A stretch of DNA of 64,000 nucleotides from Candidatus Shapirobacteria bacterium (GTDB lineage Bacteria > Patescibacteriota > Microgenomatia > UBA12405). Within the stretch, counting starts at the first letter, position 1; each line of letters starts with the position of its first letter. Under the pieces are notes generated by a model that worked only from the letters and a program-made list of their open reading frames with translations, was not told the DNA's origin and did not search any database. Where the stretch lies: NCBI GenBank assembly GCA_041661765.1, contig JBAZTV010000001.1:300791-364790 (forward strand), written 5' to 3'. Made by a program: the position numbers and the translations under genes. Below, piece after piece: positions 3,555-61,487 of this stretch.

Positions 3555-4484
3555 ATGCTAGGAATAAAAAAAATAAATTCTATTTTTGAAGAACTTCGTC
3601 CTACTCAATGGATAAAAAATTTGGCTATTTTTTCAGCTATAATTTTAAATGGACAACTTTTTAATTCTCAGCTTTTTATTCCCAATTTTTTTGCTTTTAT
3701 AGCCTTTTGTTTTTTATCTTCATCCTCTTATATTATTAACGATCTTATTGATGTCAGTAAAGATCGGTTACATCCAGTCAAAAAAAATCGTCCAATTGCT
3801 CGTGGTGATGTTTCAGAATCAGCTGGCATTTTTATTGCGTTTTTTCTTCTTTTCTTTGGATTAGGGATAACGATTTTTATTAATTATGGTTTTTTCGTTT
3901 TTTCTCTCATCTTTATTTTACTTCAATATTCCTATTCTTTATTCCTAAAAAAGAAAGCCATTGTCGATATTATGGGAATAGCTTTATTTTTTATAATTCG
4001 TGCTTTTGCTGGTGAAATTGTTACAGGTTATCATCTTCCGATTTGGATTATGCTAACCGTTATTTTTTTATCCCTATTTATTGCCAGCGGAAAACGCCGT
4101 AGTGAATTAGTTAATAGTGGTACAAAAACCAGGTCGGCTCTTAGTGGTTATAGTAAAAATCTTCTAAATTTTTATACCACTATGTTTGCTGTCTGTACTT
4201 TAGTTTGTTATGCTTTATTTACTTTTTTTGAAGAATCAGTCAGTTTTTCTGGATCAGGGTTTTTACACCAGCTTCTCTTAGATTTTTTCCCCAACGCTTT
4301 AAATCGAAAATGGTATATGATCACTCTTTTACCCGTAATTTTTGGAATTATGCGTTATGGTCAAATAATTTTTGAGATGCAAGAAGGTGAGAGGCCTGAA
4401 AGAATAGTCGCCACAGATATACCTATTTTACTTTCAGTTCTAATTTGGGGGCTGATGATAATTGGTATCATCTATGCAATCTAA
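3555..4484 (+). CDS. UbiA-family prenyltransferase, decaprenyl-phosphate phosphoribosyltransferase (DPPR synthase)-like
   Basis: RPTQWIKN motif near N-terminus and NDLIDVSKDRLHPVKKNRPIARG (NDxxDxxxD) Asp-rich motif, multiple TM helices; typical of UbiA-superfamily DPPR synthases. Confidence 0.65.
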   Translation: MLGIKKINSIFEELRPTQWIKNLAIFSAIILNGQLFNSQLFIPNFFAFIAFCFLSSSSYIINDLIDVSKDRLHPVKKNRPIARGDVSESAGIFIAFFLLFFGLGITIFINYGFFVFSLIFILLQYSYSLFLKKKAIVDIMGIALFFIIRAFAGEIVTGYHLPIWIMLTVIFLSLFIASGKRRSELVNSGTKTRSALSGYSKNLLNFYTTMFAVCTLVCYALFTFFEESVSFSGSGFLHQLLLDFFPNALNRKWYMITLLPVIFGIMRYGQIIFEMQEGERPERIVATDIPILLSVLIWGLMIIGIIYAI

Positions 4485-6066
4485 CAAAATCAAAAGAATT
4501 TTAATTCCGTTTTTTTTAATATTTCTTACTATTTTTACTCGCTTCTATTCTCTTAACTGGGGCAACGGCTACTTTTTTAATCCGGATGAAAATAATATGG
4601 CTATTGCTGTTTCCAAAATGACTTTATCAGATCTTAATCCACATTTTTTTGCCTATGGACAATTTCCTCTTTTTTTGACCTTTTTTACTACTCCAAATCA
4701 TGATTTTTCTACCATTATTTTAACTTTACGTTTTTGGTCAGCTGTGTTTTCCTCCTTGTCAATTTTATTTTTTTATTTGATCGCCAAAAATATTTTTAAG
4801 TCCCAAAAAATAAGTTATATTTTTGCACTTCTCTTAATTTTTACCCCAGGTCTAATTCAGTCAGCTCATTTTGGAACTACCGAGTCTCTTCTTATTTTTA
4901 TTTTTTCTGCCAATATTTTTTTATCCTTAAAATATTATCAAACCGAAAAAAAACTATTTTTTTTATTTTCTATTTTAGTCAGTGCAGTCGGCCTTGCTTC
5001 TAAAATAACTGCTGTTTTTTTTATTCTGCCATTTTATCTTTGTCTCTTTTTAATTTTTCTAAAAAATAAGGGCCTCCCTGCTTGCCCGCCCACTGGCTGG
5101 GTCAAGGGAGGTGTCCGAAAGACGGAGGGTTTTAATCTCATTTTTACCGCCGTTATATTTACTCTCCTGACTTCATTTCTATCTCTTCTTTTTTCTCCTT
5201 TCAACATCATCAAATTTTCCGATTTTAAGTCAACTATGAATTATGAAACATCAGTAGCTATTGGCACAAATAAAGTTTTTTATACTCGTCAATTTGAAAA
5301 TTCTCTACCATATATTTTTCAATTAAAAAATATTTTTCCATATGCTAATGGAATTTTTATTTTTATTTTTTCTTTTTTCGGTTTTTTATTTTTTCTAAAA
5401 AATAAAATAAAAAAAGAATTTCTTTTAATTCTAATTCCGTCAATAATTTATTTTATTTACGCTGGCCAGCTTTTTGTTAAATGGTCTCGTTTTATGTCCC
5501 CTGTTTTTTTTATAGCTCCGTTTTTCTGTCTTTTTTTAATCGAAAAAATTAAAAACAAATTTTTAATTTTAATTTTATTAATAACAATGATTAGTCCTGG
5601 CTTTTATTTTTTTCAAAAATATTTCTCAATCGACACTCGAATTATTGCCTCAAATTGGATTGAATCAAATATACCTTCAGATTCATTCATCTTATCTGAA
5701 TCCGGTAATGTTGTTAATTTACCTTTATTTTACATTGATCTTAAAGTTAACAATTTTGATTTTTATAATCAGGATAATATAAAAAATTTATCAACAGAGA
5801 TAAATAAAAATGACTATATAATTATTCCTTCGCGCCGAGTTTTTAAAAATAATTTTCCCCAAACTGAAAAATATTATCAAAATTTATTTTCAGGTAATTT
5901 AGGTTTTAAAGAAATCAAAGTAATTAATAATCAAAGAGATTTGTTTTTAAATTCAGAAAATGCTGAAGAAACTTGGTCTGTTTTTGATTCTCCAACCATT
6001 AGAATATATAAAAAAGTTACCAATTTTAAATTAAATGACTATCAAAAAATACTTATCGATAATTAA
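4462..6066 (+). CDS. GT-C fold membrane glycosyltransferase (GT39/ArnT/PMT-like), paralog 1
   Basis: About 12 TM helices; first extracytoplasmic loop carries a DE motif (NPDENN) as in PMT/ArnT-type enzymes; paralogous to 6642..8402; contains an in-frame GC-rich insertion at 5071..5136. Confidence 0.55.
   Translation: MVSSMQSNKIKRILIPFFLIFLTIFTRFYSLNWGNGYFFNPDENNMAIAVSKMTLSDLNPHFFAYGQFPLFLTFFTTPNHDFSTIILTLRFWSAVFSSLSILFFYLIAKNIFKSQKISYIFALLLIFTPGLIQSAHFGTTESLLIFIFSANIFLSLKYYQTEKKLFFLFSILVSAVGLASKITAVFFILPFYLCLFLIFLKNKGLPACPPTGWVKGGVRKTEGFNLIFTAVIFTLLTSFLSLLFSPFNIIKFSDFKSTMNYETSVAIGTNKVFYTRQFENSLPYIFQLKNIFPYANGIFIFIFSFFGFLFFLKNKIKKEFLLILIPSIIYFIYAGQLFVKWSRFMSPVFFIAPFFCLFLIEKIKNKFLILILLITMISPGFYFFQKYFSIDTRIIASNWIESNIPSDSFILSESGNVVNLPLFYIDLKVNNFDFYNQDNIKNLSTEINKNDYIIIPSRRVFKNNFPQTEKYYQNLFSGNLGFKEIKVINNQRDLFLNSENAEETWSVFDSPTIRIYKKVTNFKLNDYQKILIDN
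5071..5136. repeat. GC-rich short element (family B), copy 1, in-frame within GT-C glycosyltransferase gene
   Basis: GGCCTCCCTGCTTGCCCGCCCACTGGCTGGGTCAAGGGAGGTGTCCGAAAGACGGAGGGTTTTAAT; internal inverted repeat CCTCCCT...AGGGAGG; shares TCAAGGGAGG-TG(T/C)CCGAA...GG(A/T)GGGTTT core with 61228..61270. Confidence 0.55.
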
Positions 6067-11090: not shown

Positions 11091-13022
11091 ATGGAAGATA
11101 TTTTAGAAGGTTTAAACCCAAATCAAAAAGAAGCAGTTATCCATATTGGCTCTCCTTTGCTTTTATTAGCTGGAGCTGGTTCTGGTAAAACTCGAGTTTT
11201 AACTCACCGTGTAGCCTATTTTATTCAAAAAAAAATTGCCAAACCATCAGAAATTTTACTTCTCACTTTCACCAATAAGGCCGCCGAGGAGATGAGAAAC
11301 CGTACTAATAGATTAATTGTAGAGACGCCCCGACGGGGCGTCTCTACAACTGATAAAAATAATAAATCTTTATTAAAACAAAATATTTTTGCTGGAACTT
11401 TTCATTCTTTTTGCTGTCGAGTTTTACGTGCCGATGGCAATAATATTGGCATTCCCCCTAAATTTGTTATTTACGACTCAAATGATCAGGAAAATTTAAT
11501 CAAAAATATTCTTCACGAACTTGGCTTAACTACTAAAGAATTTAAACCTTCCAGCGTCTTATATTATATCGAAGCCGCAAAAAATTCTTTTCAAACTCCA
11601 AAAGACATGATTGCCCAAAGTCATGGTTTTTGGCAAGATTATGCCAGTAAAATTTATTCTCGTTACCAACAAAAACTATTTGAATTTCATGCTCTCGATT
11701 TTAACGATCTTTTATTTAAAACCGTTGAATTATTTTTACAATATCCAGATGTTTTGGCTAAATATCAAGATATTTATAAATTTATTATGGTTGATGAATA
11801 TCAAGACACTAATCAAATTCAATATCTTCTAACCAAACTTTTAGCCAAAAAATACAACCAAATTACTGTTGTTGGCGATGCTTCGCAGGCAATTTATGGT
11901 TGGCGCGGTGCCGATTATCGCAATCTTGTTAGTTTTACTACCGATTTCAAAAATACCAAAGTTATTAATCTTGAAGAAAACTATCGTTCCACTCAAATTA
12001 TTCTCGATGCTGCCAATACAGTCATTTCTAAAAATAATTCTCATCCAATTTTAAAATTATTCACTCAAAAAAAATCAGAAGATAAAATAAAAATTTTTGA
12101 AGCCGAATCAGAGGTTGCCGAGGCTGACTTTACTGCTTCCAAAATTAAATTTATTAATGATAATTTAAAAATTCCTTTGCGAAATATTGCCGTTCTTTAC
12201 CGGATGAATGCTCAATCGCGTGTTTTAGAAGAAGCCTTTTTGCGTCAGAGCATCCCTTATGTTTTATTAGGTGGGATTCGTTTTTATGAGCGTGCCGAAA
12301 TCAAAGATATTTTATCGATGCTTCGTTTTGCCAGTAATCCTGCAGATCATATTTCCGAAGAGAGAATCGAAAAAGCATTAGGCAAACGCAAAAAAGCAGT
12401 TCTAATTAATCATCTTGAAGATATGGATTTAGAAAACCTCACTTCACTTCAAATACTAGAATCATTGGTTGTAAATTCTGGCTATCTTAATAAATTTGAT
12501 GCTAAAGATGAGGAAGATCAGAAAAGAATTGAAAATATTAAAGAATTAAAATCAGTTGCTGCCGCACATCCTCAATTAAGTGCTTTTTTAGAAAATATCA
12601 CTTTAGTTCAACAAGAATATTCTCTTCAAGAAAAAAATAAGAAAAAAGAAAAACGCGACGGAGTTAAACTAATGACTCTTCACAGTGCCAAAGGTTTGGA
12701 GTTTGAAGTTGTTTTTATGGTTGGTTTTGAAGAGGGAATTTTACCTCACTCTCGCTGCCTAATTAACGAATCAGAAATCGAAGAAGAACGTCGTCTTTGT
12801 TATGTTGGTATTACTCGTGCGAAAGATTATCTTTATATTTCATATGCCAATAAACGTCTATTTTTCGGTAAAAGTAGCCTCAATGAACCGAGTCGATTTT
12901 TAGCCGATATTCCTCAAGAATTAGTTGAATTTGAGGAAAGTTTAGAAACCGTTCATGATTATCGCCATCCCAGAAAATCCAAAGACGATGATGACATCAT
13001 TTATGATCCCGATATATACTAA
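11091..13022 (+). CDS. UvrD/PcrA-family ATP-dependent DNA helicase
   Basis: Walker A AGAGSGKTRVL, DEYQDTN (motif II), later helicase motifs (GDASQAIYGWRGA, TLHSAKGLEF, GITRAKD); contains in-frame REP hairpin insertion at 11317..11349. Confidence 0.85.
   Translation: MEDILEGLNPNQKEAVIHIGSPLLLLAGAGSGKTRVLTHRVAYFIQKKIAKPSEILLLTFTNKAAEEMRNRTNRLIVETPRRGVSTTDKNNKSLLKQNIFAGTFHSFCCRVLRADGNNIGIPPKFVIYDSNDQENLIKNILHELGLTTKEFKPSSVLYYIEAAKNSFQTPKDMIAQSHGFWQDYASKIYSRYQQKLFEFHALDFNDLLFKTVELFLQYPDVLAKYQDIYKFIMVDEYQDTNQIQYLLTKLLAKKYNQITVVGDASQAIYGWRGADYRNLVSFTTDFKNTKVINLEENYRSTQIILDAANTVISKNNSHPILKLFTQKKSEDKIKIFEAESEVAEADFTASKIKFINDNLKIPLRNIAVLYRMNAQSRVLEEAFLRQSIPYVLLGGIRFYERAEIKDILSMLRFASNPADHISEERIEKALGKRKKAVLINHLEDMDLENLTSLQILESLVVNSGYLNKFDAKDEEDQKRIENIKELKSVAAAHPQLSAFLENITLVQQEYSLQEKNKKKEKRDGVKLMTLHSAKGLEFEVVFMVGFEEGILPHSRCLINESEIEEERRLCYVGITRAKDYLYISYANKRLFFGKSSLNEPSRFLADIPQELVEFEESLETVHDYRHPRKSKDDDDIIYDPDIY
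11317..11349. repeat. REP hairpin inserted in-frame in UvrD/PcrA helicase gene: TTGTAGAGACGCC-CCGACGG-GGCGTCTCTACAA
   Basis: 13-bp perfect stem, 7-nt loop; GC-rich island in AT-rich CDS; translated as ...VETPRRGVSTTDK... Confidence 0.7.
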
Positions 13023-24500: not shown

Positions 24501-24707
24501 CAATTCAATCAAGGGATCATTGATTTTGTTGAAAAAAGTAAATTAAAAAAGAATTTCATCAGAAAAGAAATTAATGTTTCCGATGAAGATTTAGATAAAC
24601 TAAAAACTCAAATCGAAGAGGTCTATCAAAAAATTTTAAATTTAGAATTCTTTGAAATCGGCAAAGATTGTAAAGACAAAGATCATTTACATTATCTATT
24701 AAAATAA
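21597..24707 (+). CDS. UvrD-like helicase fused to C-terminal RecB/Cas4-type PD-(D/E)xK nuclease domain (AddA-like single-chain helicase-nuclease)
   Basis: Walker A AGAGTGKTQT, DEYQDTN, TVHGAKGLEF, ALTRAKK; C-terminal CPFCFYY..., GKIDLIQ, VIDFKTG, YRQIVFY (QxxxY) nuclease motifs; GTG start per track. Confidence 0.75.
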   Translation: MDKNLKNNFLIEYQKLNPEQKLAVDTIEGPVMVIAGAGTGKTQTIALRIANILDKTDTKPSSILCLTYTDVAANNMRSRLLNMIGSDAYKVKFCTFHAFCNDIISSNSQYFPFASSNLKAIDDLETIEIIKNIIDHLDNSSPLISWGDRYCYQKSILDCIHLTKRENISQKTLLNLIKDEEIFFKNSSDFISQLSNIRATKNNYPQINQILDNLQNSEVISLNLKIHLQIIRSGNENLSQVKNEIRKFYQDFEKDIPKQKEFVKIFDLYQKELQKKSLYDYEDMILFVINAFNDNPDLLLNFQEKYQYILVDEYQDTNSSQSKIVDMLGNYYDNPNIFVVGDDDQSIFRFQGASIENIYNFYQKYNPQKVVLKNNYRSHKLILESSSSVISRNKNRIANLITDIDKTLISNKDYDPDPINLTVLNSNIEEDYYVAQKIYNLIKAGEKPSEITILLRKNRDADELTKMLSAFGVKFFLPSKSNILDNKVITQLIKLLEFIDNPNYNESVYHILAAPFINLNSLDLVKILKSKIVLCDLVFDQSKINSLEISEKSKKIISKFGKKIAKTKIDLENYPLEKVLNKILKRFKILKYLLSKNDIDSLNQVYTFYKLLKDTVTKRDLSLKEFIDRIHLYIENNLSISSPSINYDSSDSIKILTVHGAKGLEFDHVFIYRLLEDSWEKQRDFGKLKLPFGILASEITKSIEDDYEEDRRLFYVALTRAKKQIYLSYSQYKENGKSQNASVFISEIDNHLIEDIKFNDKAAALKTYYQYTDISHDLKPNLSAYLKDYLSNHYKFNVSHLNSYLRCPFCFYYKTILRIPQNKEKFSSFGTAIHSALSDFYQKKSKDEVIKSFEQSLKNERLPKADYKWCLENGHKILTEYYDQYVDSVKDNNITEYNFAPENIVYKNIPLTGKIDLIQKDENNKINVIDFKTGNADSKYKELSPDGDYYRQIVFYKLLLDIKNDSRFQFNQGIIDFVEKSKLKKNFIRKEINVSDEDLDKLKTQIEEVYQKILNLEFFEIGKDCKDKDHLHYLLK

Positions 24708-24710
24708 ATC

Positions 24711-26639
24711 TCAGCCGGCTCCGCCACCTCCTCCACCGCCGCCGCCTCCGCCACCCCCAGAGGCTCCACCTGACGATCCGGATCCGGAAGCACCATAACT
24801 TGAACTGGCCGCTGTTGAAATACTACTAAGGGCAGAGGATAAAGAAGACAAACCGCTTGAAAAATCACCAAAATCACCCATATTGCCACACCAATACGTT
24901 GTCATTATAATTTGGTCATTACTGTTAGTAAAATTAACTGGCAGTGCACTTATTGCTTTTATCGAAATTCCCAAAGCTGTTCCATAAACCAAATATTTTT
25001 CCCACAAAATTATTGAATCAATTGGATAATCTTTAGTTATGCCATATTCTTTCATGTGTTTTTTAAAAGCCAACCATTTAGCCGTTTCTTCACTTCCAAT
25101 TTTTGTCCTCTTTTCTCCAAATATTTTCAGATTCATTGTTACAATCGCAAAAAACATTAAAACAAAACCGCCAAAAAATCCAAGAATTATTAGTTTTATT
25201 GAGTTCAAATATGAACCTATAACCGTGCCAGATATAAATTCGATAAACATTAAAAACAATAACAATGCTCCCACTCGTGTATAATTTTTTATTGAATGAG
25301 AAGTTTTATCAAAATAACCTTCTTTTAAATTTTCTTGAAAAACTGCATCAGAAAAATGTTTAAAAAAATCATAACTTTCAGTTCGGTGTGTAGAACACCA
25401 CACAGAAATATCTTTTAATTTAACCCCTTCAATTTCTTGTCCGCCCAAATTAACTTTGGTTCGCTTTACTGACCCTAAGAAATCAAAAACACGACCTTCA
25501 ATTTCAGATGTTTCACTTATTTTTTTATTTAGCGGTACCAAGTAATAGTTATAATCTTTTAAAATAAAACCTTCCTTTTGGTCACTTCTCATGATTTTAT
25601 AAAATCGATGTTGGACTAAAGATAAAATCGTCGCGGTAAATGAGGTAGGAGATAAATATTTATTAGTACTAATTAATTGTTCAATTTGGGCTGGATCAAT
25701 ATCGCTTGGTGGCTCCCACAATCTTCCCGACAAACTTACTTCCGGTAATTTTGAATCTTTTCCAAATTTTATAAATAGTTTTATTTGTTTAACAAATAAA
25801 ACTATTCCCAGTATTAATATTCCTGTCAAAATAATAAAAAAACCTGTTGTTAGATTATTATTTTTTTGTTTCTGTTTTTCGGTTTGATCAATAAAATTTT
25901 GTTCCTGGGTTTCAATTTCTGATTTATTTAAACTTCCAACAACCCCATTAGTAAAAATATTTTTTGGTAATAAAATTCTAGATTCAAAAAAAGTTCCCGG
26001 CCACAAATTACCGACCTCATATGTCACTTTACTGGAGTCAGGAATTGACACAATCCCATCCAATGGTCCATGCGCCCAAGCTTTTATTTCCGACCCCGGA
26101 ACATTTGCTGGCAAATTAATTTGGGCAAAAACATTATTTTGGTTTATTTCCCAATCATCACCAATCAATTTCCAATACAATTCTGCCGTATCGGTATTTA
26201 AGGTAACAGCGTTACTAACATCATATTTAATTTTAAAAGTTTTCTCTCCACTATTAGTTTGATAAAACCACTTAATATAATATTTATCCGCCTGTTCATC
26301 AACATAAAAACTGGAAATTGGTTTAGTTATATCGTATTGCCCTTTATTTTTAGTATTCAATTCCCTATAACATTCATTTTCATCACAAACTTCAAAGTTT
26401 TTTAAAATATAAGGTTCACTTCTGTCACCGGTTTTATTTATATATTCATAGGCAAAGGTATAACTTCCGTTAAAAGAAAAAACTCTTGTTTCTTCAATAT
26501 TCATCGAACCGTCAGTATTTAATTGACCTAGAATATTTACACTATCAATTGAGTAAGACTTATCCGCAGCATTAACCGGACTGAACGAAAATAATAATAG
26601 AAGTACTCCCAAAATTCTAAAATATTTTGTTAATCTCAT
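24711..26639 (-). CDS. DUF2207-family membrane protein with C-terminal poly-Gly/Ser tail
   Basis: Signal peptide, N-terminal beta-rich domain, central TM helices, tail SSYGASGSGSSGGASGGGGGGGGGGGGGAG (encoded by GC-rich run 24715..24800). Confidence 0.55.
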   Translation of the reverse strand: MRLTKYFRILGVLLLLFSFSPVNAADKSYSIDSVNILGQLNTDGSMNIEETRVFSFNGSYTFAYEYINKTGDRSEPYILKNFEVCDENECYRELNTKNKGQYDITKPISSFYVDEQADKYYIKWFYQTNSGEKTFKIKYDVSNAVTLNTDTAELYWKLIGDDWEINQNNVFAQINLPANVPGSEIKAWAHGPLDGIVSIPDSSKVTYEVGNLWPGTFFESRILLPKNIFTNGVVGSLNKSEIETQEQNFIDQTEKQKQKNNNLTTGFFIILTGILILGIVLFVKQIKLFIKFGKDSKLPEVSLSGRLWEPPSDIDPAQIEQLISTNKYLSPTSFTATILSLVQHRFYKIMRSDQKEGFILKDYNYYLVPLNKKISETSEIEGRVFDFLGSVKRTKVNLGGQEIEGVKLKDISVWCSTHRTESYDFFKHFSDAVFQENLKEGYFDKTSHSIKNYTRVGALLLFLMFIEFISGTVIGSYLNSIKLIILGFFGGFVLMFFAIVTMNLKIFGEKRTKIGSEETAKWLAFKKHMKEYGITKDYPIDSIILWEKYLVYGTALGISIKAISALPVNFTNSNDQIIMTTYWCGNMGDFGDFSSGLSSLSSALSSISTAASSSYGASGSGSSGGASGGGGGGGGGGGGGAG

Positions 26640-26665: not shown

Positions 26666-27097
26666 ATGAAAATTAAAATCAAAAGATTTGATAAAACACT
26701 GCCGTTACCAGTTCATAAAACCACTGGTGCCGTCGCCGTCGATTTATATTCCCGTCTTGATGCTGAAATTCCACCCAAAGAAATTGGCAAAATTCCCATG
26801 AATGTTGCCATAGAAATTCCCGATGGTTATTTTATTATGATGGTTCCTCGCAGTTCTACCCATAAATTAGGCATAATGTCGGCCAATGGCGTTGGTGTCT
26901 TCGATCGTGATTACTGTGGCGACAACGACGAATATCATTTTCTTGTTTACAATTTTACCCACGCTCCCATCCATATCGAAAAAGGCACCCGTCTTTGTCA
27001 GTTATTATTAATCAAATGTGAAAATTTTGATTTCATCGAAGTCGACAAGATGGGCAATTCTGACCGCGGCGGGTTTGGGACAACAGGAGTGAAGTAA
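26666..27097 (+). CDS. dut: dUTP diphosphatase
   Basis: 143 aa; dUTPase motifs incl. C-terminal motif V RGGFGTTG. Confidence 0.8.
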   Translation: MKIKIKRFDKTLPLPVHKTTGAVAVDLYSRLDAEIPPKEIGKIPMNVAIEIPDGYFIMMVPRSSTHKLGIMSANGVGVFDRDYCGDNDEYHFLVYNFTHAPIHIEKGTRLCQLLLIKCENFDFIEVDKMGNSDRGGFGTTGVK

Positions 27098-27594
27098 TTT
27101 TTCAATCTCCCCTAGCCCCTCTTTGACAAGAGGGGAACTAAATCATCAATTTTCTTTTTTACGGAATCAATATTATCTATCACTTCTTCATTTGTAAATC
27201 TTATTGTTGTAACCCCAATTTGTTTCAAAAATTTATCCCTCAATTCATCCGTTCCTTTCTTTTTAATATGCGATTCACCATCAATCTCAATTGCCAATGA
27301 TAATTTTGAACAATAAAAATCAACAATAAATCGATCAATTGGTTTTTGTCTCAGAAATCTATAGCCGGTTTTATCTCTCGACAAAATTTTATCCCAAATT
27401 ATTTTTTCAGCATCAGTCGGTTTCGTTCTATTTTTCTGCGACATAAAAGTCAAACTATTTCGATATCGAACACAATTTCTTTTAGAATTTATCGCTTCAT
27501 AATCAACCGATTTTTTCATTAAAAAATTATATATTCCCCCGTCTTGTCAAAGAAGGGGGCAGGGGGAAGATTGAATAAAAAGGGGAGATTGAAA
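27098..27594. mobile_element. candidate miniature selfish element: DUF559 gene bounded by 14-bp perfect terminal inverted repeats (TTTCAATCTCCCCT / AGGGGAGATTGAAA) and sub-terminal GC-rich hairpins
   Basis: Left end 27100..27113 and right end 27581..27594 are exact reverse complements; hairpins CCCCTCTT-TGAC-AAGAGGGG (27116..27135) and CCCCCGTCTT-GTCA-AAGAAGGGGG (27536..27559) are near-copies of each other in inverted orientation. Confidence 0.4.
27112..27519 (-). CDS. DUF559 endonuclease-like protein (Vsr/restriction-endonuclease-like fold)
   Basis: IWDKILSRDKTGYRFLRQKPIDRFIVDFYCSKLSLAIEIDGESH...GVTTIRFTNEEV matches the DUF559 pattern; C-terminal 9 codons are encoded by the left terminal hairpin. 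Confidence 0.65.
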   Translation of the reverse strand: MKKSVDYEAINSKRNCVRYRNSLTFMSQKNRTKPTDAEKIIWDKILSRDKTGYRFLRQKPIDRFIVDFYCSKLSLAIEIDGESHIKKKGTDELRDKFLKQIGVTTIRFTNEEVIDNIDSVKKKIDDLVPLLSKRG

Positions 27595-27675
27595 TGATAA
27601 AAAATTTTATAATTTTTATCCGCTTTATTATTTTCTAGTGGAGCTTTGTAATTTTGCTGGAGTATAATAACCATT

Positions 27676-35372: not shown

Positions 35373-35384
35373 TAATATTATTCC

Positions 35385-35412
35385 GTAGAGACGCCATGCA
35401 TGGCGTCTCTAC
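35385..35412. repeat. REP hairpin, 28-nt perfect palindrome GTAGAGACGCCATG|CATGGCGTCTCTAC
   Basis: Between dnaK stop and dnaJ start. Confidence 0.6.
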
Positions 35413-51705: not shown

Positions 51706-51894
51706 GTAGAGACGCATTGTATGCGTCTCTTGGTAATAAATTCAAAATAAAACATAATTAATTTAGAGACGCACGCAGTGCGTCTCTACTGACGATAAAT
51801 AAAATTTTATAGAGACGTTCTACAGAACGTCTCTATTGATATAAAAATTGAATAATTTGTTTAGTAGTAGGAACACGCCATGGCGTGTTCCTAC
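51706..51894. repeat. tandem cluster of four REP hairpins (GTAGAGACG-type x3 plus GTAGGAACACGCC variant)
   Basis: 51706..51732 GTAGAGACGCAT-TGT-ATGCGTCTCT; 51764..51788 TAGAGACGCAC-GCA-GTGCGTCTCTA; 51810..51835 TAGAGACGTTC-TACA-GAACGTCTCTA; 51867..51894 GTAGGAACACGCCA|TGGCGTGTTCCTAC. Confidence 0.7.
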
Positions 51895-51926: not shown

Positions 51927-53741
51927 ATGAAAGCCCGTGATTTAAAGGAAAAATTCATTAATTTTTTTGTTTCTCAAAAACACATCGAAATTCCCTCCAG
52001 TAATTTAACTCCCGAAAATGATCCGACCACTTTGTTTATTTCCGCCGGCATGCAACAATTAGTTCCATATTTCACCGGAAAACCACATCCATTAGGTAAG
52101 AGACTAACAGATGTTCAAAAATGCGTTAGGACCGGCGATATTGATGAAGTTGGAGATTCATTTCATCATACTTTTTTTGAAATGCTTGGCAACTGGTCTC
52201 TTGGTGATTACTTTAAAAACGAAATGCTTCCTTGGAGTTATCAATTTTTAACCAAAGAATTAAATATTGATCCAAAAAATCTTTTTGTCACTTGTTTTAC
52301 TGGTAACAAAAACGCTCCCAAAGATGAATTTAGTGCTTCTGTTTGGAAATCTTTAGGCATGAATCAAGACAATATTATTTTTTTGGAAGATAATTGGTGG
52401 GGTCCAGCCGGTCTAACAGGTCCATGTGGTCCAGATAGTGAAATGTTTATCGATACTCATCCAGAATTACCAAAAGTCGATTTTAAAACAGGGGATAAAC
52501 AAGGCCGTTATTTGGAAATTTGGAACGATGTTTTTTTGGAATATAACAAAAATGCCGATGATACTTTTTCAAAATTAACTCAGCAAAATGTCGATACCGG
52601 TATGGGTGTTGAAAGAACAATTACAATTTTATCCGGTTTTTCGGACAATTATTTAACCGACATCTGGCAACCAATCATTAAAAAAATAGAAGAATTATCG
52701 GAAAAAAATTATAATGAAAGCCGTCCTGTCAAGGGAGGTGGTTCCGATGAAATCGGAGACGGAGGGTTTAAAAAATCCATTCGTATTATTGCCGACCACA
52801 TCAAGGCTTCTGTTTTTATTATTGCCGACGGCGTTGAACCCACTAATAAAGAAACCGGTTATGTTCTCCGCCGTCTAATTCGTCGTGCTATTCGTCAAGG
52901 GAAATTATTAGGCATTGAAACCAATTTTATTTCTCAAATTGCCGATGCAGTTTTAGATAATCAAGACAATTACGCCGGTGTTTACCCCGAATTAGATGCC
53001 AATCGCGATAAAATTATTTCAATCTTAGATGCTGAAGAAAATAAATTCAGAAAAACTTTAAACAATGGCCTTCGTGAAATCAATAAATTAATCGAAAGAA
53101 ATAAAAGTGTTTCTGGTAAAGAAGCTTTTACCCTTTATGAAAGTTTCGGTTTTCCAATCGAAATGATTGAAGAGGAACTTCAAAAAAACAATTTAACCTT
53201 AAATAAGGAAGAATTTGAAGAAGCAAAATTAGCTCATCAAAAGCAGTCACAAACTTTGTCTGCTGGCAAATTCAAATCCGGTCTAGCAGATAATTCTGAA
53301 ATCATTACCAAATATCACACCGCCACTCATTTATTACATTCCGCTTTAAGAAAAATTTTAGGCGACAATGTTCAACAATCTGGTTCCAATATCACTTCTG
53401 AAAGATTACGTTTTGATTTCTCTTATTTCGAAAAATTAACCGACGACCAATTAAAACAAATCCAAGATTTAATTAATCAACAAATTAAATTAGATTTACT
53501 AGTCGTCGTTGAAACAATGCCTTTTGTCGAAGCTCAGTCACAAAATGCTTTAGCTTTTTTTGGCAATAAATACCCTGAAATTGTCACGGTTTATACCATT
53601 GGTTCGGCAGAAAATTATTTTTCCAAAGAAGTTTGCACTGGCCCTCATGTAAGCCATTTATCGGAACTTGGTAATTTTGAAATCCAAAAAGAAGAATCAG
53701 CGGGGAGTGGTAAACGTCGTATCTACGCCATCTTAAATTAG
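51927..53741 (+). CDS. alaS: alanyl-tRNA synthetase, compact form (catalytic + tRNA-recognition + editing domains, no C-Ala domain)
   Basis: N-terminal AlaRS class II core (FHHTFFEMLGNWS, WGPAG), editing-domain HxxxH (HTATHLLH) and CxxxH (CTGPHVSH) motifs; 604 aa. Confidence 0.85.
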   Translation: MKARDLKEKFINFFVSQKHIEIPSSNLTPENDPTTLFISAGMQQLVPYFTGKPHPLGKRLTDVQKCVRTGDIDEVGDSFHHTFFEMLGNWSLGDYFKNEMLPWSYQFLTKELNIDPKNLFVTCFTGNKNAPKDEFSASVWKSLGMNQDNIIFLEDNWWGPAGLTGPCGPDSEMFIDTHPELPKVDFKTGDKQGRYLEIWNDVFLEYNKNADDTFSKLTQQNVDTGMGVERTITILSGFSDNYLTDIWQPIIKKIEELSEKNYNESRPVKGGGSDEIGDGGFKKSIRIIADHIKASVFIIADGVEPTNKETGYVLRRLIRRAIRQGKLLGIETNFISQIADAVLDNQDNYAGVYPELDANRDKIISILDAEENKFRKTLNNGLREINKLIERNKSVSGKEAFTLYESFGFPIEMIEEELQKNNLTLNKEEFEEAKLAHQKQSQTLSAGKFKSGLADNSEIITKYHTATHLLHSALRKILGDNVQQSGSNITSERLRFDFSYFEKLTDDQLKQIQDLINQQIKLDLLVVVETMPFVEAQSQNALAFFGNKYPEIVTVYTIGSAENYFSKEVCTGPHVSHLSELGNFEIQKEESAGSGKRRIYAILN

Positions 53742-58258: not shown

Positions 58259-60268
58259 TTAGATTAATTTAACATTTGGATAATTAATTCTAACTATTTT
58301 TCTCTCTTCTTCATTCATATTTACAAGATTAATAAAACCACTGATATTTTTTGGTAATGCCAATCCTTTTGCAGATTTGAGATTAAAAAGAATAAGATTA
58401 CCATTAATACTTTTCGGTAAAACCAATCCTTCAGCCGATTTAAGACCAGAAAGATCTAGACCACCATTAATAGTTTCTGATAAAACCAATCCTTTAATAG
58501 ATTTAAGACCGGAGAGCTTAAGATTACCATTAATACTTTTCGGTAAAACCAATCCTTCAGCCGATTTAAGACCAGAAAGATCTAGACCACCATTAATAGT
58601 TTCTGATAAAACCAATCCTTTAATAGATTTAAGACCGGAGAGCTTAAGATTACCATTAATACTTTTCGGTAAAACCAATCCTTCAGCCGATTTAAGACCA
58701 GAAAGATCTAGACTACCATTAATACTTTTTGGTAATATCAATCCTTTTGCGGATTCGAGATTAAAAAGATCTAGATCACCATTAATAGTTTCTGGTAAAA
58801 CCAATCCTTTAATAGATTCAAGACCAGAGAGAGTAATGCCACCATTAATACTTTTTGGTAATATCAACCCTTCAGCCGATTTAAGACCAGATAAAACAAA
58901 ATCACCATTAATATTTTCTGGTAAAACTAATCCTTTTATAGATGAAAGATTATAAAGTTTGAGATTACCATAATGAAATTTAATACCCCCTTTTAGAGCC
59001 TCTTCTTTTGTGACACTAATCTGATCTTTAAAGTAACCAGTAATAAAAGAAATATCGGATTTAATATCTCTTTTGTCTATAATTTCTTTAATTCTAGGAT
59101 CCTTTTTATATCCAAAACCTTCAATTCCACTATTTATTTCATAAATAAACAGTAATTCTTCTTTAGAAAGTTCTTCTTGATCATCTTTAACTTTTTTATC
59201 AATTAAAGTCAGAAATTTCATATCAGAATCTTTTTTATCAAACTTTTCCCCACCAGGAAGTTGACGATATTTTTCTTTAGCAATATCAGTCATATTACCT
59301 TCAAGATTTTGATCAGCATTAATACCCCTAACTTCAGCAACTTGACCATTTTCCATCCGAATAGCAATCCTAGGAATAGTGTTCTTATTATCTTGGTCTT
59401 TTGAATAATAAACATAAAAGTCACCTTTTATTAATTGTATTCTGGACGTTTCTTCCCCAGCTGTACACCAACCAGTTCCATGTCCTTGTAGTGATTCATA
59501 AAGTGGAATATGGTCATCACCTTGATTAAATTTAGTCCATTCACCTTCTATTTTTTCCTTGTTTTCTTTAGAGGCTGGTGTCACTTTATCAATAGCATAA
59601 GCATAAATTTTAGAAAAATTAGCTGAATCTAGAATCCTATTTAATTCTTCGTTATCATGTTTTTCGTGTTTAAGATAATGTTTTTCCAATACATCATAAG
59701 TAAAAGATAAGGCTTCTCTATTTAAGTCTGGAAAAATATTTGTAGTTTTTTTACTCCTTTTACCAAATTCTTTTTTATCTTTATCATAAGCTCCCATTTT
59801 GACTACATTCCTCATAGTATAGTATTTAAACCAAGAGGGATAAATAGAATCATTATCAGTTAAATAGTCTATCCAAGTATCTAATGATTGTTTTTGATCA
59901 TTATAAATGGTTTCACCAGCTTCTTTTTTATCAATATGCCCTAAATCACCTGCTTGACCTCTTTCTCTGGCTACCTTAAGTTGTAATTCAAAATAAGAAT
60001 CTGGAATATTATTTTTATCTATTAGAGCATCTGGATAAATAAACATCCTTTTAAATAAGTTTAATTTTCTTTCTTTAATATCTTCATTTGAATCATTAAA
60101 AAAAACATCCAATCTATCTAGGTAAACTTCATTTCTATCTGCGGGATTATTAGGAGTTTTAATACCTTCTTTTCTTTGTTTACTTTCTACCAACCTTTTA
60201 ACTTGAGCTGATTTTTGTAATTCAGGATATTTAAAATTTAAAAATTCTCCTCCACCTCTTTCACTCAT
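58259..60268 (-). CDS. protein with unknown ~400-aa N-terminal domain and C-terminal array of 21-residue leucine-rich repeats (G-L-x-L-P-x-x-I-N-G-x-L-x-L-S-G-L-K-S-A-E), no signal peptide
   Basis: Repeat array encoded by 63/126-bp tandem DNA repeats 58330..58960; N-terminal domain contains HGTGWCTAGEET segment. Confidence 0.6.
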   Translation of the reverse strand: MSERGGGEFLNFKYPELQKSAQVKRLVESKQRKEGIKTPNNPADRNEVYLDRLDVFFNDSNEDIKERKLNLFKRMFIYPDALIDKNNIPDSYFELQLKVARERGQAGDLGHIDKKEAGETIYNDQKQSLDTWIDYLTDNDSIYPSWFKYYTMRNVVKMGAYDKDKKEFGKRSKKTTNIFPDLNREALSFTYDVLEKHYLKHEKHDNEELNRILDSANFSKIYAYAIDKVTPASKENKEKIEGEWTKFNQGDDHIPLYESLQGHGTGWCTAGEETSRIQLIKGDFYVYYSKDQDNKNTIPRIAIRMENGQVAEVRGINADQNLEGNMTDIAKEKYRQLPGGEKFDKKDSDMKFLTLIDKKVKDDQEELSKEELLFIYEINSGIEGFGYKKDPRIKEIIDKRDIKSDISFITGYFKDQISVTKEEALKGGIKFHYGNLKLYNLSSIKGLVLPENINGDFVLSGLKSAEGLILPKSINGGITLSGLESIKGLVLPETINGDLDLFNLESAKGLILPKSINGSLDLSGLKSAEGLVLPKSINGNLKLSGLKSIKGLVLSETINGGLDLSGLKSAEGLVLPKSINGNLKLSGLKSIKGLVLSETINGGLDLSGLKSAEGLVLPKSINGNLILFNLKSAKGLALPKNISGFINLVNMNEEERKIVRINYPNVKLI
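58393..58770. repeat. three near-identical 126-bp tandem direct repeats (period confirmed at 58393/58519/58645), coding for LRR units on the minus strand
   Basis: Read directly; third copy diverges after ~70 nt; flanked by more diverged 63-bp units. Confidence 0.8.
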
Positions 60269-60341: not shown

Positions 60342-61487
60342 TTAGGTATTGTTAATTTTTTTATTCACCAAATCATTTAAAATAACCCATCGCCTTTTCT
60401 TTTCCTTCATAGGAATTTCGTCTTTATAAATTTTTGCCGACACAGTCCCTTTTCTTGGAGAATATTTATTTATATAAGCAATTTCAAAACCAACCTTTTT
60501 ACAAAGATCAACCGTATTTTGAAAAGCTTTTTCATCTTCTCCCGGAAAACCAATAATTATATCAGTACTAAATCTGACATCTGAAATCTGAGATCTGATT
60601 TTCTTGACCAAGTCTAAATATTCTTTACTAGTGTAACCGCGATTCATATTTTTCAATACTTCATCATCACCAGCCTGAAACGGCAAATGGAGTAATCGGT
60701 CAATGTTTGGATATTTAGCAATGGTCTCAATTAATTCATCAGAAAAATCCCATGGATTACTGCTCACAAAAGAAATTTTTTTCAAATCTCTCTTGACCAC
60801 TTCTTCTAAAAGTTTTGGAAATAAACTCTTAAATCTTTTTTTACCCATCGATACCAATGTCGCTTCCGTAAAATCGTTTCCATACGAATTAACATTCTGT
60901 CCAATTAACATCACCTGCTTAAAACCATCTTTAACGGCTTTATCGATATCTTTTAAAATATCTTCCATTTTTCTCGATATTTCCGGACCTTTAGCAAAGG
61001 GGACAATGCAATAACTACAGAAATTACTACAACCAAAACTAATTGGAATCAAAGCCACCTCACTTTTTCCTCTCAATGGTTCAATTTCAAAACTAATTTT
61101 TTCAATTGGTAAAAATTCCGAAACTGTGGGAAAATCTCTTTTCAATTGACTTAATTTTTTACCCGTCTTATCTTTATGTGCCAATCCCGCCAAACACCCC
61201 GTCACAATAATTTTAATCTTTTTAAGTCCTCCTTTTTCAAGGGAGGATGCCCGAAGGGTAGGTGGGTTTCGATTTAATTTATCAATCTCATTTATCAAAC
61301 CATAAACTCTATTTTCCGCTGACTCTCGAATAATACAGGTATTAATAATCACCAAATCAGCCTTTTTCCAATTATCAGTTTCAATAAAACCTTTATTCCA
61401 ATAAAAAGCCTTAATTCTTTCCGAATCAGCCGTATTTTGAATACACCCAAAAGTTTTAATGAAAAATTTCATTGCCAATTCTATCAA
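60342..61487 (-). CDS. radical SAM methylthiotransferase, MiaB/RimO-like (short, no obvious TRAM domain)
   Basis: N-terminal MTTase domain (IKTFGCIQNTADSE), radical SAM CxxxCxxC (FGCSNFCSYC); contains in-frame GC-rich insertion encoded by 61228..61270. Confidence 0.7.
   Translation of the reverse strand: MIELAMKFFIKTFGCIQNTADSERIKAFYWNKGFIETDNWKKADLVIINTCIIRESAENRVYGLINEIDKLNRNPPTLRASSLEKGGLKKIKIIVTGCLAGLAHKDKTGKKLSQLKRDFPTVSEFLPIEKISFEIEPLRGKSEVALIPISFGCSNFCSYCIVPFAKGPEISRKMEDILKDIDKAVKDGFKQVMLIGQNVNSYGNDFTEATLVSMGKKRFKSLFPKLLEEVVKRDLKKISFVSSNPWDFSDELIETIAKYPNIDRLLHLPFQAGDDEVLKNMNRGYTSKEYLDLVKKIRSQISDVRFSTDIIIGFPGEDEKAFQNTVDLCKKVGFEIAYINKYSPRKGTVSAKIYKDEIPMKEKKRRWVILNDLVNKKINNT
61228..61270. 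repeat. GC-rich short element (family B), copy 2, in-frame within radical-SAM gene (minus-strand CDS)
   Basis: TCCTCCTTTTTCAAGGGAGGATGCCCGAAGGGTAGGTGGGTTTCG; contains TCCTCC/GGGAGGA inverted repeat. Confidence 0.55.

Follow-up and report, generated by a model that had tools for sequence, protein, structure and literature searches.

Results

GC-rich hairpin islands in three genes of the window

The window analysed here is a 64-kb stretch of DNA from a metagenome-assembled genome (MAG) of Candidatus Shapirobacteria, a bacterium of the candidate phyla radiation (CPR). It is AT-rich, with a GC content of about 32%. Three genes in it, encoding a family 39 glycosyltransferase (GT39), an alanyl-tRNA synthetase (AlaRS) and a MiaB-like methylthiotransferase, each carry a short GC-rich island built of hairpins, and a further gene, encoding a small DUF559 protein, lies between two inverted modules of similar build. 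An earlier note on this DNA had read the islands in the GT39 and MiaB-like genes as a miniature element, mobile or recombinogenic, which is tolerated in the form of an inserted peptide. Both islands were found where it had placed them, both keep the frame of the host gene and both contain the CCTCC(C)..GGGAGG inverted repeats. Their shared core was indeed above chance, but the window holds three copies and not two, the AlaRS copy having been overlooked; a nested insertion in copy 1 and the inverted repeats around the DUF559 gene had also gone unnoticed (Table 1).

The exact core TCAAGGGAGG occurred three times in the window against 0.13 expected, and none of 100 shuffled sequences reached this number. 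With one mismatch allowed, four occurrences stood against 2.5 expected, which is no excess over chance. The copies follow a common plan. A pyrimidine-rich arm CCTCCCT, a loop GTCA or TTTC, a purine-rich arm AGGGAGG and TG are followed by a second hairpin of variable sequence and length (hairpin 2), a G-box that repeats the purine arm, and Ts (GGAGGGTTT or GGTGGGTTT). The element is 36-50 nt long, or 63 nt where a nested insert is present, as in copy 1. A hidden Markov model (HMM) of the family, trained on 85 metagenomic copies and run over the window with nhmmer, recovered copies 1, 2 and 3 and no other member. The three islands belong to one family.

For copy 1 the earlier note had given an island of about 65 nt. 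The size was right, but it is not the length of the family, because it results from a nested 21-nt insertion; without this piece copy 1 is a 42-nt element. The nested piece was the sole gap in a 3158-nt alignment with contig L197 (97.0% identity), and no relatives of it were found in approx. 2 Mb of compared DNA. The TTTTAATCT motif, which had been taken as part of the element, occurred 4 times in the window against 5.15 expected and so did not stand out from chance. The TTTTAA found 3' of copy 1 is the ordinary 3' tail of the family. GTCAAGGGAGGTG is common to copies 1 and 3 with its codon phase unchanged, but the phase of GGAGGGTTT differs between them, and the two copies are therefore alike as DNA and not as peptide. 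A predicted peptide that spans an insert is, for example, NESRPVKGGGSDEIGDGGFK.

Table 1. Positions of the element copies, their host genes, the DUF559 cassette and related features (window positions unless another locus is named).
Feature	Position	Strand	Description
Copy 1	5070..5132	+	sense, within the GT39/PMT gene; nhmmer E 4e-10; encodes GLPACPPTGWVKGGVRKTEGF
Copy 1, 5' arm	5073-5079		CCTCCCT
Copy 1, G-arm	5105-5111		AGGGAGG, then TG
Copy 1, hairpin 2	5114-5122		degenerate
Copy 1, 3' box	5124-5132		GGAGGGTTT
Nested GC-rich hairpin, 21 nt	5081..5101	+	in the hairpin-1 loop of copy 1; encodes ACPPTGW
Copy 2, divergent subtype	61227..61269	+	antisense to the MiaB-like gene; HMM E 0.84; layout TCCTCCTT-TTTC-AAGGGAGGA-TG-CCC GAA GGG-TA-GGTGGGTTT; minus-strand reading NPPTLRASSLEKGGL
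Copy 3	52720..52769	+	sense, within alanyl-tRNA synthetase; nhmmer E 9e-12; layout GCCGTCCT-GTCA-AGGGAGG-TGG-TCCGAT GAA ATCGGA-GAC-GGAGGGTTT; encodes RPVKGGGSDEIGDGGF
Host gene 1, GT39/PMT_2 glycosyltransferase	4462..6066	+	Pfam PMT_2/PMT; glycosyltransferase family 39 in public records
Host gene 2, MiaB-like methylthiotransferase	60342..61487	-	UPF0004 + Radical_SAM
Host gene 3, alanyl-tRNA synthetase	51927..53741	+	
DUF559 gene (Vsr-like PD-(D/E)XK nuclease, predicted)	27112..27519	-	135 aa; Pfam PF04480, E 5e-28 (cutoff 20.6 bits)
Left flanking module	27098..27138	-	read outward TTCCCCTCTTGTCAAAGAGGGGCTAGGGGAGATTGAAAAA; hairpin 1 and second G-box, without hairpin 2
Right flanking module	27534..27593	+	inverted copy of the left module, TTCCCCCGTCTTGTCAAAGAAGGGGGCAGGGGGAAGATTGAA, then a further GGGGAGATTGAA box
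Inverted cassette comparison	26666-27600; L008 9480-10420		
GTAG-type REP family	11311-11356, 35383-35412, 51765-51795		palindromes GTAGAGACGC..GCGTCTCTAC
GGAGGGTTTTATG junction loci	L116 1070-1110, L141 2985-3030, L148 720-770, L146 3590-3640		

Insertion status in orthologous genes

Near orthologues of all three host genes lack the inserted residues, which bears out the reading of the islands as insertions. In an alignment of the window AlaRS with the Aquifex AlaRS (1riq), a 13-residue gap fell exactly at PVKGGGSDEIGDG. The nearest AlaRS orthologues (86-89% identity, 586 aa) are without the insert, and the same insert is present in three more distant ones (81-82% identity). A clean pair was formed by the AlaRS genes of L004 (filled) and L005 (empty), which are 93% identical at the nucleotide level and differ by exactly 45 nt, AACCGCCCTGTCAAGGGAGGTGGCTCCGATGAAATCGGAGACGGA. 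Among the MiaB-like orthologues, L003 is empty at the site of copy 2, and the gene of L005 holds another member of the family, with CCTCGCAACTGCGAGG as hairpin 2, in identical position and orientation. At the GT39 site most orthologues read FLKNKKIPNF (empty allele DNA in L198), and the element is found in a patchy minority. The element is thus polymorphic as an insertion, and the idea of a mobile or recombinogenic unit is supported by its copies, by the empty orthologues and by its use of reading frames.

In an AlphaFold model of AlaRS the insert residues 266-279 form a coil with a predicted local distance difference test (pLDDT) score below 50, between the helices 248-258 and 282-300. This model fits a tolerated surface loop. 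Comparison of the three filled AlaRS alleles gave 92-94% identity for the element against 77-85% for the genes, and the grouping does not follow gene similarity. The greater likeness of the element points either way, to constraint on the element or to acquisition after the genes had diverged.

G-rich codons stand exactly at the insertion sites of the empty alleles, namely GAA GGG TTT in AlaRS (L005 10790-10800), GGT CGG GGT in MiaB (L003 ~17130) and AAA AGG GCA in TsaD (L101 ~5330). They could be excision footprints or preferred targets.

Copies in metagenomes and their reading frames

A search for further copies, which the earlier note had proposed, gave the third copy in the window and many more elsewhere. 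The pattern CTGTCAAGGGAGGTGN{6,30}GGAGGGTT, applied to metagenomes, returned at least 111 DNA stretches (33% GC) with at least 115 non-redundant copies and the consensus AGCC(T/G)CCCTGTCAAGGGAGGTG-hairpin 2-(A)CGGAGGGTTT(T). By place, 55 copies lie inside long open reading frames (ORFs), 37 are intergenic or at gene boundaries, 12 stand beside DUF559 genes and 11 at contig ends. In the first 80 metagenome loci, 45 intragenic copies fell into 21 host families, many of them essential: TrmD, Rho, TsaD, DnaX, NAD-dependent DNA ligase (LigA), Dus, QueH, a VirB4/TraG-like ATPase, Wzy_C, patatin, RimK, sulfatase and FkbM methyltransferase, in addition to AlaRS, MiaB and GT39, are among them. A Trp/Tyr-tRNA synthetase was considered as the 22nd host and dropped, the element lying in fact upstream of the true start codon.

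Intragenic copies use five of the six frames (read as TSLDREA, PPLTGRL, LPVKGG, PPCQGR and SLSREV); none of them uses the sixth, in which a TGA occurs. Since one and the same sequence serves in five frames, on either strand, and is present in intergenic DNA too, what recurs is a DNA element rather than a protein motif. Coding sequence tolerates it. The orientation within genes is antisense in 40 copies and sense in 15 (p = 0.001 per copy), a figure on which we do not rely because orthologous copies are not independent. By host family the numbers were 14 versus 7, judged not significant without a formal test, and an antisense bias is thus unproven.

The intergenic copies keep close to stop codons, at a distance of 0-13 nt. 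In one orthologous operon junction (four loci in Table 1) the 3' box gives GGAGGGTTTTATG (or GTG), that is, a Shine-Dalgarno sequence and start codon for the downstream gene. A decayed copy with a 24-nt internal deletion was seen in L112 by comparison with L102. In the QueH gene of L163 (4114-4146; cf. L136/L139) a fresh copy adjoins a decayed one, which suggests repeated insertion beside an existing copy.

Hairpin 2 is maintained through compensatory changes. Among 91 copies, 56 distinct hairpin-2 segments were found, and half of the segments have a stem longer than in 95% of their own shuffles. Perfect stems of 6-9 bp include TCCCGA/TCGGGA, CCCCGC/GCGGGG, GTCCGA/TCGGAC, CTCCGAT/ATCGGAG and ACCTGC/GCAGGT among many, and TCCGAT..ATCGGA of the window corresponds to ACCGAT..ATCGGT in L003, a compensatory pair of changes. 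Rfam gave no match at the gathering threshold over the whole window; at E <= 1 there was none for copy 3, and for the full DUF559 cassette only a spurious long non-coding RNA (E 0.6). A terminator role of sense copies was also considered, and the scan found no terminator-like site at copy 1.

A shared insertion site in AlaRS

Of 120 Shapirobacteria AlaRS sequences compared, 17 have a GC-rich insert in a single place, following residue ~262; elsewhere in the protein just one further GC-rich candidate was seen. At least four kinds of insert occupy the site in different lineages. Two are the element family read as PVKGGG and the same DNA motif in another frame, LPCQGEV..DGGV; the third is a subtype like copy 2, QGEM..GQRGF, and the fourth, VETL(R/H)ATSLQ, derives from an unrelated family of repetitive extragenic palindromic (REP) sequences of GTAG type. 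In some lineages the GT39 site likewise holds a peptide derived from this REP family, ETHHDASLH. The earlier note had regarded the island family as independent of the GTAG family; by sequence this is correct, but the two occupy the same orthologue sites in AlaRS and GT39.

On a neighbour-joining tree of AlaRS, parsimony required at least 15 gains or losses, a count inflated by tree error or recombination, as is shown by an unrelated, protein-like insert (CWVD) with a scattered distribution of its own. It can be stated more firmly that at least 4 independent events took place at this site, because subfamilies and frames differ.

An insert that is not of the GC-rich kind, DDFYIKDGKQCWVD, of 14-17 residues, was seen in the same loop in 11 of the 120 sequences (P0012, P0023, P0059, P0066 and others), scattered on the tree. 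Recombination, or another mobile module that uses this site, may lie behind it.

A DUF559 gene between inverted modules

The DUF559 protein of the window matched the solved DUF559 structure (PDB 3hrl) with E 3e-14 and is labelled in NCBIfam as 'DUF559 domain-containing protein' only. It has the conserved block D..IEIDG..H, and nuclease activity is predicted. The flanking hairpin supplies the codons for the PLLSKRG at the C terminus of the protein. The left module begins directly past the stop codon of a dUTPase-like ORF, and both flanks, when read outward, give TTCCCCTCTTGTCAAAGAGGGGCTAGGGGAGATTGAA.

In L004 the sortase and ruvX genes enclose a DUF559 gene and three modules. L005, which is 93% identical, lacks this entire unit, and in this single case the junctions are marked by GTTAT, a direct repeat of 5 bp. 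The upstream module of L004, CCCTCCTTTTTTAAGGGAGGGTG-CTCCGATTTTTATCGGAG-CGGGTAGGTTTT, closely resembles copy 2. In the first 80 metagenome loci all five exact-subfamily pairs spaced 430-470 nt apart enclose a DUF559 ORF, and the cassettes of these loci are 477-511 nt long.

A scan of species-representative genomes with the DUF559 profile gave 80 loci from many phyla, out of at least 536 seen; 76 of the 80, together with those of the window and L004, made up a set of 78 loci for hairpin analysis. Within 250 nt of the DUF559 gene, hairpins were found on both sides in 47 of the 78 loci, on one side in 28 and on neither in 3. Their density is about 28-fold higher at <=250 nt from DUF559 than elsewhere in the loci, and the raw hits over the set numbered 623 versus 46 in shuffles. 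The two flanks of one DUF559 gene match each other and differ between lineages (for example TCCCCCCTGATAAGGGGGGCTAGGGGGGTTGGCTGTT in a Nitrospirae MAG), and solo copies are closer to the DUF559 flanks of their own locus than to those of other loci (p = 3e-4). The hairpins are physically associated with DUF559 genes. No description of this association was found in the searched literature, which was not exhaustive.

A single outward geometry of terminal inverted repeats (TIRs) was tried as a general description; it is good for the Shapirobacteria subfamily and fails across phyla. The TTAA flanks of the cassettes are uninformative as to target-site duplication (TSD) or TIR because they are palindromic. 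L006, L007 and L011 have the cassette beside the dUTPase-like gene in synteny, and L008 has it in the opposite orientation, an inversion that is expected because the inverted flanks can recombine. Presence/absence at one locus and this one inverted syntenic cassette make up the data on homing-type behaviour. DUF559 as a defence system was rejected, as PADLOC gave only weak partial nuclease-domain matches.

Other features of the window

The stretch of highest GC content in the window (24704-24796, 68%) encodes the poly-Gly/Ser C-terminal tail (...GGASGGGGGGGGGGGGGAG) of a 642-aa ORF, 24711..26639(-). It is a simple repeat outside the hairpin family. A 669-aa ORF at 58259-60268 (-) contains many tandem repeats of ~23 residues (GLVLPxxINGxLxLSGLKSAE) that resemble leucine-rich repeats and is unrelated to the element family.

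Discussion

Favoured explanation and alternatives

The islands form a dispersed family of GC-rich hairpins, and we consider it probable that they are non-autonomous copies of the inverted terminal modules of ~0.5-kb DUF559 cassettes. DUF559 would act as the mobilising enzyme, and the copying may be pictured as follows. A whole cassette would be gained or lost as one unit, and single modules would be copied in trans to new sites. The intermediates would probably be DNA breaks or hairpins (cruciform or single-strand) that the DUF559 nuclease makes or recognises and that the host then repairs. Where a CPR genome is gene-dense and AT-rich, the survivors would be insertions at gene boundaries, or in-frame ones in tolerant surface loops, and the latter would add 12-21 residues to the translated protein. 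A solo copy in an essential gene present once per genome cannot be what is left of a 500-nt cassette at that site, and we therefore infer that single modules move alone. A wider proposal, that DUF559 genes with hairpin/G-box flanks are an unrecognised, multi-phylum class of selfish elements in which a nuclease of about 130 aa with a Vsr-like PD-(D/E)XK fold would spread both its 0.5-kb cassette and solo modules of 36-50 nt, is put forward as a tentative possibility that we hold for somewhat doubtful.

Several observations weigh against the cassette-derived origin. The flanks of the window DUF559 gene belong, by HMM, to another subfamily than the three solo copies. Modules point outward in the Shapirobacteria subfamily, and inward modules or doublets dominate in other phyla. 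The solo 45-nt insertion that separates L004 from L005 has no TSD, and the empty allele already reads GGGTTT at the junction, either as a target that was there beforehand or as a scar, so that the pair does not define termini or mechanism. The GTAG REP family is found at the same AlaRS and GT39 sites as the element, so that the choice of site may reflect host tolerance rather than an element-specific enzyme. We know of no activity of DUF559 on such hairpins and of no transposase role for any PD-(D/E)XK protein of 130 aa. RNA folding of single copies, a check that the earlier note had suggested, gave weak z-scores of the minimum free energy (-1.2 to -1.8). GC-rich shuffles fold about equally well, and the compensatory variation in hairpin 2 was therefore used as structural evidence instead.

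Part of this evidence speaks for another explanation, namely that the islands are independent REP-like hairpins moved by another enzyme, for example a REP-associated tyrosine transposase (RAYT) or another Y1 transposase of IS200 type, or by template switching in replication or repair, and that DUF559 genes land in hairpins, are captured between them or use them as terminator, ribosome-binding site or insulator. Its strongest argument is that identical sites of insertion are used by the GTAG REP family; the phylum-dependent orientation of modules around DUF559, the arrays and doublets, and the solo pair without TSD add to it. There is also precedent for insertion sequences (IS) that target REPs, in IS110-type elements and in ISPpu9. 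We nevertheless regard this explanation as rather unlikely, since the L004 cassette is absent together with all its three modules as a unit, leaving in L005 an empty site without any module, since the two flanks of any one DUF559 gene are alike in very different lineages, and since hairpins accompany 75 of the 78 DUF559 loci. No Y1 transposase turned up near the copies, although no systematic search was made. It is less probable still, and in our view improbable, that the copies are duplicated RNA or DNA signals of use to the host, such as terminators, mRNA stabilisers or ribosome-binding sites, and are found in genes by accident. The position of intergenic copies close to stop codons, GGAGGGTTTTATG at several loci and the compensatory change that keeps hairpin 2 would agree with this, but copy 1 has no terminator, Rfam has no match, about half of the at least 115 copies lie in ORFs, and presence/absence among near-identical genomes favours mobility over conserved function.

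It might also be that the inserts never reach the protein, being cut out of the RNA or bypassed in translation like the 'byps' of GC clusters in Magnusiomyces mitochondria, where bypassed GC clusters in coding regions have a precedent (PMC8811140). All observed intragenic copies are, however, in frame and free of stops, the frame with TGA is never used, and no split genes were found among copies of the intergenic class. A frame constraint would be needless if inserts were skipped, and we therefore find bypassing very improbable. To ordinary conserved or convergent low-complexity protein sequence we give next to no credence. The Gly-rich look of the peptides is all that speaks for it; for each of the three genes the nearest orthologues lack the residues, five frames on the two strands translate one DNA motif that is present between genes as well, and the count of the core is well over chance.

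If the derivation from DUF559 cassettes is right, it would be the second clear bacterial case, after the Rickettsia palindromic elements (RPEs), of selfish DNA inside essential protein genes, this time in the poorly understood CPR, and we know of no elements of this kind smaller than 36-50 nt. It would link DUF559, a very common domain of unknown function, to the hypothesis of a hairpin-associated selfish nuclease. The wider proposal, if true, would provide a first proposed function for the very large DUF559 family and a functional analogue of the REP-RAYT system on another enzyme fold, and it would account for a recurrent source of in-frame peptide insertions in essential CPR genes. TSLDREA, LPVKGG and PLLSKRG in metagenomic proteins would be recognisable signatures of the element. 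Length variation of CPR housekeeping proteins could be interpreted through such inserts, and their presence or absence may serve as a fine-scale strain marker.

Comparison with known systems

The RPEs are palindromic repeats found between genes and in frame within conserved, functional protein genes, where they are translated and are neutral or slightly harmful (PMC2229807). The elements described here share with them the in-frame fusion that keeps the host frame, and both occur in reduced genomes. They are set apart by description: RPEs are 105-146 bp long and specific to Rickettsia, whereas these are 36-50 nt long, belong to a CPR lineage, are strongly GC-rich within an AT-rich genome and match the ends of DUF559 cassettes. 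For RPEs we know of no partner gene.

REP/RAYT systems consist of dispersed GC-rich hairpins and a small nuclease/transposase gene flanked by inverted copies (PMC2817692, PMC3116915). Dispersed short GC-rich hairpins, a gene with inverted flanks and, in some phyla, doublets are found here as they are for REPs and their doublets (REPINs). The gene between the flanks is, however, a PF04480 DUF559 gene (PD-(D/E)XK, Vsr-like) instead of an HUH Y1 transposase, neither a GTAG nor a CGTC tag is present in the consensus AGCCTCCCTGTCAAGGGAGGTG..GGAGGGTTT, and single modules, besides doublets, appear to be mobile. Furthermore, 55 of the 115 listed copies (at least 115 in all) lie in long ORFs, whereas REPs are extragenic.

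The GC clusters of yeast mitochondria show in-frame insertion polymorphism in var1, rapid change, merging, nesting and recombination hot spots (PMC8811140). By analogy only, they too are short GC-rich palindromic mobile units with in-frame polymorphism in an AT-rich genome. Unlike the elements here, they are organellar and eukaryotic, have terminal AG/TAG repeats that are read as target duplications, which were unseen here, and have no nuclease cassette attached. A transposable element of the miniature inverted-repeat kind (MITE) is likewise a short non-coding derivative with the ends of a longer coding unit, and the full unit here is polymorphic with a short direct repeat. The 5' arm of the element can pair with either G-box, but a solo copy corresponds to one end of the cassette and not to two joined ends, the encoded protein is no known transposase, and the clean 45-nt solo insertion has no TSD. 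On the favoured explanation, solo copies would stand to the DUF559 cassette as REPs and REPINs do to their RAYT gene, or MITEs to their parent IS.

DUF559 shares its clade of the nuclease superfamily with Vsr-like (EDxHD) homing endonucleases, for instance I-Bth0305I (PMC3424549), and with free-standing Vsr-like homing endonuclease genes (PMC2677866). The latter two are selfish genes that spread by DNA cutting and copying during repair, a likeness to the scheme put forward here, but they are tied to introns, inteins or one target gene and are not bracketed by hairpins with solo copies. In-frame palindromic selfish DNA is thus already known from RPEs and GC clusters, and a hairpin-flanked gene with solo copies from REP-RAYT. 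The present elements differ from these systems in their CPR host, their size of 36-50 nt, their strong intragenic occupancy and a partner gene of another fold.

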